DNA from: a virus
Taxonomy: Duplodnaviria; Caudoviricetes
Reading direction: 5' to 3' (one strand)
Virus record (IMG/VR): IMGVR_UViG_3300032290_001036
Span: 2,510 to 66,509 of that record
Length of the DNA stretch: 64,000 bases
This document shows positions 60,483 to 61,873 of the stretch, piece after piece. The position numbers and the translations under genes were made by a program. How positions within the stretch are numbered: position 1 is the first letter of the stretch; each line of letters opens with the position of its first letter. The notes beneath the pieces are model-generated. The model did no database searches. It was not told the origin of the DNA and was given only the letters and a program-made list of their open reading frames with translations.

Positions 60483-60754
60483 TGGCAAACTATCCATACT
60501 GTTACACCAATCAGTGTTATGACTTTGAGGGCCGAGAATTCGGCCCTCCTACTCTTTATAGGGATGGGAAAACCGCTAAGATGATGGCTCGCTACAGAGT
60601 CATCATCCAACAAGATTCCACACCTGTAATGCAGGTGCGGATAACACGGCGTCGTAATGGAAACAGGCTGGACGAGCCGTGGATGCTTGTTTGGTTTGAT
60701 GACAAAACCGGACAACCAACACAAACACAAAAGAAAGAACACTTAATTAAATGA
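60482..60754 (+). CDS. hypothetical protein
   Basis: TAATG coupling. Confidence 0.6.
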   Translation: MANYPYCYTNQCYDFEGREFGPPTLYRDGKTAKMMARYRVIIQQDSTPVMQVRITRRRNGNRLDEPWMLVWFDDKTGQPTQTQKKEHLIK

Positions 60755-61005
60755 GATTTGTACCTGAAGTTTTATATGGAACTCTTGTCGTTGAGCATCT
60801 TTTATCAATCGAAATGATAACAAAAGATCATTACGATGAGTGTTGGAAGATGTTTAAAGACATTTCTGATCCAGTTAATTACGTTTTGATTGATCTTTCA
60901 CAAATTCTTACTGAGCGTGATGATTACAATCGAGACAATGCTATTAACTACATTATAAAAGCTGAAAATCTTATAGATTTTTACAACACCAAGCTCGCCA
61001 TCTAA
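60751..61005 (+). CDS. hypothetical protein
   Basis: Overlaps the previous stop. Confidence 0.6.
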   Translation: MRFVPEVLYGTLVVEHLLSIEMITKDHYDECWKMFKDISDPVNYVLIDLSQILTERDDYNRDNAINYIIKAENLIDFYNTKLAI

Positions 61006-61011
61006 TGTTTT

Positions 61012-61043
61012 ATGTGAGGGGTGCGTCTCACTAAAAACGCACA
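61012..61043 (+). ncRNA. intergenic H-type pseudoknot element, copy 1
   Basis: GTGAG-GG-GTGCGT-CTCAC-TAAAA-ACGCAC. Confidence 0.6.
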
Positions 61044-61058
61044 GAAAGAAACAAACAA

Positions 61059-61550
61059 ATGTCACTTCCAATCTACACAAACTATTTCGTTGAGCGCCTT
61101 ACCGCTAACCACACTCGTCTTCAAGAAGGCACACTTGGTCGCTATGAATACTATGAGTCTTACTCACATGACAAAGAGATGAATATCAATGATTGTCGGT
61201 TTAAACTGACATACAAACTGCGCTTTGAGATTGCTGACAAAGAAAGCAATGCTTTGCCAGTACCTAATGTCATTATTGGAATAACTTTTGAGGCATACGA
61301 GGACAAGGATGTATCAACCCTTAGTCCATCAGCTAGTAAGACTACTGACTATAACGTCACCCTTACGAAAACTGAGTTCCTTGAACAAGTTGCTGAAGCC
61401 ATTGAGCGCTACAAGGCGCTCATTGAAGACTTTCCGATTCCACAGCTTGATTTTGACTTCTGGCCACAAACAGCCAAGTTGATGAAGCAGTTTGATAAGC
61501 AGACTTCATCAACTGAGCGTGACAACTCAGACTTCCTAATAAAGAAGTAA
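61059..61550 (+). CDS. hypothetical acidic protein flanked by direct repeats
   Basis: 163 aa; A-rich leader. Confidence 0.75.
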   Translation: MSLPIYTNYFVERLTANHTRLQEGTLGRYEYYESYSHDKEMNINDCRFKLTYKLRFEIADKESNALPVPNVIIGITFEAYEDKDVSTLSPSASKTTDYNVTLTKTEFLEQVAEAIERYKALIEDFPIPQLDFDFWPQTAKLMKQFDKQTSSTERDNSDFLIKK

Positions 61551-61554
61551 TCAC

Positions 61555-61586
61555 ATGTGAGGGGTGCGTCTCACTAACAACGCACA
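61555..61586 (+). ncRNA. intergenic H-type pseudoknot element, copy 2
   Basis: GTGAG-GG-GTGCGT-CTCAC-TAACA-ACGCAC. Confidence 0.6.
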
Positions 61587-61609
61587 CTACACAATACAAA
61601 GGTAACACA

Positions 61610-61873
61610 ATGAAATACACAATTGAAACGTTCCGCGCACTCGTTGACAGGATGATGGTCAACAGCGTTGGGTTGACATCCAGTGACCTGCCAGACGTAA
61701 GTCTATGGGATTACTTTGACACAGACACAGACTATACAAAACAAGAGATAACCGAAACAGCAAAAGACGCAATCGCAGACATTCTCATGGAAGGTGATTG
61801 CCCATCTGATGTCATTGATGACACTATGACCCACATTGGAATGACACTTTACCAAGGAGTTAAAAATGACTAA
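61610..61873 (+). CDS. hypothetical acidic protein
   Basis: 87 aa; VGLTSSDLPDVSLWDYFD. Confidence 0.7.
   Translation: MKYTIETFRALVDRMMVNSVGLTSSDLPDVSLWDYFDTDTDYTKQEITETAKDAIADILMEGDCPSDVIDDTMTHIGMTLYQGVKND

Follow-up and report, generated by a model that had tools for sequence, protein, structure and literature searches.

The DNA analysed here (the window) was a stretch of 64,000 nucleotides that spans bases 2510-66509 in a virus record which is 66,509 bp long and has terminal repeats. The phage encodes a P22-type portal and a large terminase, a DnaB helicase, a Mu Gam-like protein, an HTH_36 protein, ThyX and a dUTPase, and about one half of the genes have ribosome-binding sites of GGAG type. 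Searches of Pfam, PHROGs and PDB sequences revealed neither an RNA nor a DNA polymerase; two giant ORFs of 4232 and 2178 aa were also matchless in these searches, and a divergent virion RNA polymerase may be conceivable there. Two 32-nt repeats lie on the plus strand, at 61012-61043 and 61555-61586, in a block of small ORFs and on either side of a 163-aa gene here called gene X (Table 1). Gene X, which had no Pfam or PHROG match, is restricted to this phage family, where its orthologues are 23-86% identical and always bracketed by two of the pseudoknots described below. Its model (pLDDT 89) comprises a helix, four long strands and two helices, for which no convincing fold relative was found (Foldseek best E 5e-3 at TM 0.3; VIA best Z 6.4).

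The two 32-mers differ at a single loop base (A at 61035, C at 61578). A search with up to 3 mismatches gave 2 matches against 0.00 expected from shuffles (n=100), and no third copy was found in the whole 66,509-bp genome. A first-pass annotation of this DNA, made from the sequence alone, had read them as two near-identical H-type pseudoknots (hereafter, knots) differing only in the unpaired loop 3 (L3), and both their coordinates and their anatomy proved to be as claimed. It was also correct in placing them 6-8 nt past a stop codon and before leaders of 16 and 24 nt with weak motifs of the Shine-Dalgarno (SD) type. Its description of stem 2 (S2) as 6 bp with no nucleotide in L2 held in part: five pairs were borne out, while the sixth, U13-A24, was not conserved. 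Since position 13, the junction base, is U, C or A in the own phage family and any base elsewhere, S2 is given here as 5 bp with an optional sixth and L2 as 0-1 nt. In the wider family introduced below, the consensus consists of 4-5 complementary pairs of stem 1 (S1) closed by G5-C14, GG, GUGCG, one free base, the 3' arm of S1, an A-rich L3 with a terminal AA, and CGCA(C/U). Both window copies fit it exactly, and they are likewise intergenic, in sense orientation and a few nucleotides past a stop. An unfiltered run over the whole window of covariance model R1, built on 70 diverse family members, scored copy 2 at 47.8 bits and copy 1 at 45.9 bits, the next match reaching 13. Both kinds of spacer recur in relatives, AGAAAGA-type for copy 1 and ACUACACAAUACAAAGGUAACACA-type for copy 2. 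An A/C-rich stretch at 60700-60750, ending in AAAGAAAGAACAC before the ATG at 60751, resembles the AGAAAGA-type spacers and has no knot before it.

Table 1. Features at and around the two pseudoknots, with the giant ORFs of the phage and the tRNA-like elements of other loci (positions are those of the window unless a locus is named).
Feature	Position	Strand	Remarks
Giant ORF, 4232 aa	7130-19828	-	No Pfam, PHROG or PDB sequence match
Giant ORF, 2178 aa	42987-49523	-	No Pfam, PHROG or PDB sequence match
84-aa ORF ending ...KLAI*	60751..61005	+	TAA stop 61003-61005, 8 nt before copy 1; conserved upstream partner of slot B
Pseudoknot copy 1 (slot B)	61014..61042	+	From sequence; same slot occupied in relatives
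Copy 1, S1	61014-18 / 61027-31	+	GUGAG / CUCAC
Copy 1, L1	61019-20	+	GG
Copy 1, S2	61021-25(26) / (61037)61038-42	+	GUGCG(U) / (A)CGCAC
Copy 1, junction base	61026	+	U
Copy 1, L3	61032-36	+	UAAAA(A)
Spacer, 16 nt, copy 1 to gene X ATG	61043..61058	+	Purine/A-rich AGAAAGAAACAAACAA; weak SD-like GAAAGA; ATG 61059
Gene X, 163 aa	61059..61550	+	Knot on each side; TAA stop 61548-50, 6 nt before copy 2
Pseudoknot copy 2 (slot C)	61557..61585	+	Same stems as copy 1; L3 UAACA(A); from sequence and relatives
Spacer, 24 nt, after copy 2	61586..61609	+	A/C-rich; AAAGGU 8 nt before ATG 61610
87-aa ORF after copy 2	61610..61873	+	Variable slot; five gene families there in relatives
tRNA-like elements	L209:4339-4410; L191:3049-3115; L146:2291-2365		Also in L170, L278, L306

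The exact-stem pattern was found in 29 IMG/VR contigs, mostly of 60-66 kb, and relaxed searches gave 2-3 copies in each genome, without exception on the coding strand and in the same block of small ORFs, so close together that two or three fall within 1.6 kb. Many relatives carry a copy ('slot A') about 1 kb upstream that the window does not have. Over 73 unique-context instances of this family, 21 of the 29 positions were invariant and the flanks were free to vary; the surrounding proteins were strongly diverged in the relatives. As to the changes that do occur, pair 1-18 was G-C in 71 instances and C-G in 2, the outer S2 pair 8-29 was G-C in 47, G-U in 14, A-U in 12 and A-C in 0, and L3 positions 19, 20 and 22 were variable. 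The stop codon preceded the knot by 5-11 nt, and the knot end preceded the next ATG by 14-27 nt.

The element extends far beyond these relatives. IMG/VR scans (n=2) that left S1 free and were anchored on GGGGTGCG...AACGCAC gave at least 212 unique-context matches. When the five bases before the anchor were compared with the five after the junction base, 96 of the 212 unique-context matches listed had complementary arms at 5/5 positions and another 51 had them at 4/5, the chance of 5/5 being about 1% by estimate. The S1 claimed for the two window copies thus covaries across phage contigs, over at least 38 distinct arm combinations in IMG/VR, such as ACGAG/CUCGU, CGCAG/CUGCG, AAGUG/CACUU, GGUAG/CUACC, CCCAG/CUGGG and CUGUG/CACAG. 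Among 69 distinct sequences, the inner S1 pairs 2-17, 3-16 and 4-15 each occurred as 4-6 pair types with 0-2 mismatches. In an alignment of 70 sequences (A4) the S1 covariation score was 0.405 against 0.096 when shuffled, and 0 of 500 shuffles reached 0.405. Sliding the 3' partner of S1 by 1 to 3 columns lowered the pairing in A4 from 95.7% to between 17% and 61%; because the rows of A4 were selected at ≥4/5 pairs, the percentage paired is inflated, the count of pair types being unaffected. The window repeats are members of a very widespread family of pseudoknots at phage gene boundaries, present in hundreds of unrelated phages.

The covariance evidence for S2 was mixed, its outer pair co-changing between G-C, G-U and A-U and its inner four pairs being invariant. 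These inner pairs showed no variation in a descriptor search over 4.2 Mb that allowed any S2, and no inner covariation was found in an S2-free IMG/VR scan anchored on the S1, L1 and L3 of the own family, which returned 41 stretches, all already known, with the arms GUGCG/CGCAC (50), GUGCG/CGCAU (17) and AUGCG/CGCAU (14). Since the inner four pairs never vary, the support for S2 is limited to the outer pair, complementarity and geometry; its pairing rests on the complementarity of the arms, the path of changes at the outer pair, the tolerance of L3 length and the geometry of the fold. In this regard, the register was kept at L3 lengths between 4 and 10 nt, and the outer S1 pair was open in 18 of 25 sequences with an L3 of 4 nt and closed in 36 of 40 with one of ≥6 nt (Fisher 4e-7, relatedness ignored), as would follow if L3 has to cross the groove of S1 with S2 in place. 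Stem cells held 24 G-U and 0 A-C pairs, and G-U without A-C indicates that selection acts on the sense strand and so on the RNA. From this asymmetry, the covariation and the geometry it follows that the element acts as RNA on the coding strand and not at the DNA level only; with the covariation placed in S1, the same evidence upholds the H-type fold that had been proposed. Nested folding reaches only -7.2 kcal/mol, while the stacked, quasi-continuous 11-bp helix amounts to about -23.5 kcal/mol before loop penalties, and we infer a net energy of roughly -13 to -16 kcal/mol for the pseudoknot after estimated loop costs. The repeat is an RNA pseudoknot under strong selection, regardless of the downstream gene, the phage proteins or the translation style of the host.

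The second well-sampled group of carriers comprises AT-rich phages of roughly 29-32 kb, each carrying one copy. Their promoters are of the TAnnTTTG type and SD sites are nearly absent, a pattern resembling that of Bacteroidota, and in them the knot lies 4-5 nt after the first small ORF of the operon and 17-19 nt before the next ATG, often that of an ERF recombinase. When all the window ORFs were compared by tblastn with five of the 30-kb carrier genomes, no shared protein was found except for one weak HTH match. Given that the carriers have no detectable protein in common, a phage repressor of the SSB type is unlikely. They differ also in promoter types and in translation-start signals, which include SD-rich and Bacteroidota-like starts.

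In all carriers the knot was intergenic and in sense orientation, and the borders that it marks are ORF/ORF, ORF/tRNA and tRNA/ORF. It was located 9 nt before a tRNA-Met (L168, L288), 3 nt before a tRNA-Thr (L254), 50 nt after an array of eight tRNAs (L207) and 23 nt downstream of a phage tmRNA with the tag AKSNVIPFPVRRPAVLQAAA (L303:2788-3172, minus strand). At the tRNA-like loci of Table 1 it stands 1-3 nt before an element with covarying acceptor-like and T stems, with a DUF669 gene upstream and a DUF3987 ORF 80-114 nt further on. ARAGORN made no call at this element and Rfam gave only a weak mascRNA-like match (15.7 bits). It has an acceptor-like stem, a D-like loop containing GG and a perfect GGUUCGAUUCC T arm, and its middle part holds a CCUCC that could pair with the SD of the next gene. 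Knots of the CGCAG type (L184:400-452, L157, L232 and relatives) are preceded by a long imperfect hairpin bearing CCUCC and followed, 13-32 nt after the knot, by AGGAGG and an ATG; an anti-SD/SD arrangement could enclose the knot at these loci.

With respect to its neighbours, the knot stays in its own phage family with the end of the upstream gene and not with the downstream gene. Among the own-family instances with ORFs on both sides, 81 of 87 knots followed one of three upstream gene families. The gene ending in ...LAI (upstream cluster 0, 33 instances) was always followed by gene X, gene X was followed across its knot by five different families, and a gene ending in ...HGIVVIP by two; orthologues of the window genes 60171, 61866 and 62045, none of which directly follows a knot here, do so in relatives. 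Across the 38 S1-arm classes the upstream stop was 4-12 nt away in 22 and the downstream ORF start 13-36 nt away in 24, and there were also upstream gaps of 30-55 nt and, in several lineages, 59-141 nt to the next ORF. As both gaps are short in most lineages, spacing alone cannot assign the knot to either neighbour. The genes beside it belong to at least 10 families in the own phage family, and elsewhere ERF, DUF3987, DUF932 and tRNAs were found. The first-pass annotation had taken the knots for translational enhancers or operators in the leaders of early genes. That reading is weakened by a downstream gene that changes while the upstream one stays constant (81/87), and also by the knots that adjoin tRNAs, tRNA-like elements or the tmRNA and by carriers without a common protein.

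The suspicion that the element was undescribed agrees with its absence from Rfam 15 and from the literature searched. No Rfam 15 family was found at the motif in scans of 8.5 kb and 71 nt at E up to 10, in which only an 11.5-bit chance match to Cyano-1 appeared, and full-text searches for the core 10-mer and for the topic found no description. The closest architecture is presumably that of the compact H-type knots of luteovirus/enamovirus type that stimulate -1 frameshifting (BWYV, PEMV-1, ScYLV). These resemble the phage knot in their size of about 28 nt, their S1 of 5 bp and L1 of 2 nt, their single unpaired junction base and their A-rich L3 of AACAA type, which could line the minor groove of S1. 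In contrast to frameshift sites, the phage knot has no slippery heptamer and a stop codon at that position, its -1 frame ends at the UAA of L3 and another frame at the UGA of S1, it follows a stop or lies near tRNAs, its S2 is of 5-6 bp with an invariant GUGCG/CGCAC, and its carriers are DNA phages. The T4/T2 gene 32 operator, which had been offered as an analogy, is likewise an H-type knot of phage mRNA, intercistronic and upstream of an unstructured leader. However, the present knot is tied to no single gene or SSB, at least 10 gene families as well as tRNAs following it; in one lineage it comes after, not before, SSB-like DUF669 genes, and no autoregulator is common to its carriers. The comparison with gene 32 by Rfam gave no match at E up to 10, in a library that perhaps holds no gene 32 model. 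A gene 32-type operator in the leader of its own protein was rejected on gene specificity.

Likenesses to elements that govern message ends were also considered. The xrRNAs of flaviviruses and plant viruses, and coremin, are small conserved pseudoknotted folds at the boundaries of RNA units with invariant core nucleotides, like the phage knot, and are proposed to halt exonucleases and thereby set the ends of RNAs, but they need a ring or knot topology round the 5' end, and coremin requires a second hairpin (PMC11702639, PMC10321173), none of which is evident here; moreover, the enzymes facing the phage knot would be bacterial. With the MALAT1/MEN-beta 3' triple helix and mascRNA it shares, in several lineages, the order of an ORF, a knot with an A-rich loop, 1-3 nt and a tRNA or tRNA-like element. 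In this order a protective structure immediately precedes a site of RNase P type, which in the phages is putative. The knot differs in being a pseudoknot, not a U-rich clamp on an A tract, and the window copies have no adjoining tRNA-like element. Intercistronic stabilisers such as the early RNase III sites of T7 and REP hairpins are also repeated structured elements between cistrons and serve differential message stability; compared with them, the phage knot has an invariant core instead of a long hairpin, is too short for RNase III and is found across host phyla.

In attention to the above, it is very probable that the repeats, in a polycistronic early mRNA, are compact H-type knots of a widespread and uncatalogued family. 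For their role we propose tentatively, with somewhat less than even confidence, a boundary element that acts in cis to protect the ends of processed messages, each step of whose mechanism we infer. The knot would lie just beyond a ribosome at the upstream stop and just beyond the next ribosome-binding site and, being outside both ribosome footprints, would stay folded during translation of both neighbours. Endonucleolytic processing would follow, either through RNase E-type cleavage of the AU-rich spacers or through RNase P/Z at knots with a tRNA or tRNA-like neighbour. The knot would then cap the 3' end of the upstream message, a task for which bacteria usually employ plain hairpins, and perhaps the 5' end of the downstream message too, slowing exonucleases or 5'-end-dependent RNase attack. 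Gene X, with a knot on both sides, would be the best protected message. No phage protein would be needed, and the invariant core may represent tertiary contacts or the site of a conserved host partner; the invariance of the inner S2 is easier to reconcile with recognition by a partner than with a block that is purely mechanical. A 5' exonuclease block, one of the roles first suggested, calls for caution, given that simple H-type frameshift pseudoknots do not stall Xrn1 (PMC10321173) and that known xrRNAs require a ring topology (PMC10321173, PMC11702639). It is possible, though doubtful, that the knot is a phage counterpart of programmed nuclease resistance, in the joint sense that a self-sufficient module of 27-30 nt, serving in hosts of different phyla, stops host RNases (or ribosomes) at defined points, that long transcripts are so cut into individually stabilised messages, often with tRNA or tRNA-like processing signals, and that the GG/GUGCG/AA core encodes a specific fold with a triple helix or else a point of contact for a universal host machine.

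Other roles were weighed against the shielding of message ends. It is unlikely that the knot serves translation of the downstream gene as an enhancer, standby site, insulator or operator that borders the 30S footprint on its 5' side, acting at the next AUG and possibly through ribosomal protein S1 or a repressor. Distances to the ATG of 14-27 nt in the own family and of 17-19 nt in most Bacteroidota-type phages would suit such a role, as would the weak SD-like motifs and A/C-rich leaders found here in a phage with strong SDs at about half of its genes, but it leaves out the knots directly before tRNA genes or tRNA-like elements and those of several lineages with 59-141 nt to the next ORF. Furthermore, the knot does not travel with the downstream gene, no repressor candidate is common to the carriers, and in other lineages a strong AGGAGG follows the knot. 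On the upstream side, a termination-coupled element would meet the ribosome at the stop codon and affect termination, recycling or re-initiation. The spacing of 4-8 nt between stop and knot in the two best-sampled groups speaks for it, since with the stop codon in the A site a knot at this distance is located at the mRNA entry channel; we nevertheless hold it to be quite improbable, as there is no slippery site, the other frames close in the knot (UGA in S1, UAA in L3), upstream gaps reach 30-55 nt and some copies follow tRNAs or the tmRNA without an upstream ORF. Recoding by readthrough or frameshift fusion was discarded, the frames closing inside the knot.

Little credence can be given to a co-transcriptional element that acts on RNA polymerase in the manner of HK022 put RNA, by pausing or processive antitermination. 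A conserved host machine would suffice for it, in keeping with the invariance of the sequence across phyla, and the roughly 30-kb phages carry their single copy after the first small ORF of a TAnnTTTG-promoter operon. The two or three copies within 1.6 kb in the own family do not fit it, no recurrent terminator was noticed by inspection downstream of the knot in the sequences inspected, and the tight packing at tRNA 5' ends would be left unexplained. Mimicry of the NusB/NusE boxA (GUCUCACUAACAA against UGCUCUUUAACAA, 9/13) and of an SD (GAGGGGUG) were both noted by eye and judged not significant; they were set aside because the segment is paired and S1 varies elsewhere. Also improbable is an aptamer-like, high-affinity site for a conserved host protein or a small ligand, in which the variable S1 would be the scaffold and GG, GUGCG/CGCAC and the terminal AA the recognised core. 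A variable helix beside an invariant second helix and loops is what such a site would show, and the architecture, as we take it, resembles that of preQ1-I aptamers. Against it, the neighbouring genes have no common function, the junction base is free to vary, S2 is stable without ligand, and there is neither a visible expression platform nor an Rfam match. A preQ1-I or other small pseudoknot riboswitch was rejected on the absence of an Rfam match, a junction base that may be A, U, G or C, and the unrelated neighbouring genes. Finally, a signal at the DNA level, be it a phage RNA polymerase promoter, an N4-type hairpin promoter, an operator or a recombination boundary of cassettes, is hardly credible. 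Its basis would be the resemblance of CTCACTAA to T3-type promoters, CTCACTAAA being presumably a match to the T3 promoter core, together with the mosaic gene content downstream of the knot and the 4232- and 2178-aa giant ORFs of unassigned function. However, S1, including CTCAC, is freely swapped for other complementary arms, G-U occurs and A-C never does, no RNA polymerase is detectable, host-type promoters lie upstream in the 30-kb carriers, and the mosaicism may be a by-product of a conserved 29-mer. A T7/T3-type promoter was thus rejected, its CTCAC core being replaced by many pairing arms and no RNA polymerase being found by Pfam, PHROGs or PDB sequence search. Promoters of the N4 virion RNA polymerase are hairpins of 5-7 bp with a 3-nt loop at the genome end of a phage that encodes the enzyme; this type was rejected as well, the loops here being of 8 and 10 nt, not 3, and the element lying in mid-operon in the 30-kb phages.

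If the knot is indeed a boundary element that shields message ends, it would be among the commonest cis-acting RNA modules of phage operons and would provide a simple rule for the stability of single messages inside long transcripts in phages of many hosts, as well as a 29-nt insulator or stabiliser ready for synthetic operons. With an invariant core beside a stem that covaries freely, it is well suited to structural work and to a search for the host factor, if any. In annotation, it can be used to mark true gene ends and to separate small ORFs in the genomes of uncultured phages.

In bacterial chromosomes 11 matches were found, against about 30 expected from a rough chance guess that uses an approximate collection size. 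The knot was not found in 301 cyanobacterial genomes, where the matches were plain GUGCGUUA...UAACGCAC hairpins. The chromosomal exception is one orthologous intergenic site of Microcystis and Crocosphaera (L097:1501-1530 and L098:1501-1527, respectively), which may be a real chromosomal member of the family or due to chance. The spacer at this site separates a gene for a large secreted protein from an ORF of 177 aa, and its sole conserved island is a knot-like UUGAGGGGUGCGACUCAU-AAAA-CGCAC; the C-terminal tail of the 177-aa product is hydrophobic and basic and appears PEP-CTERM-like by eye.
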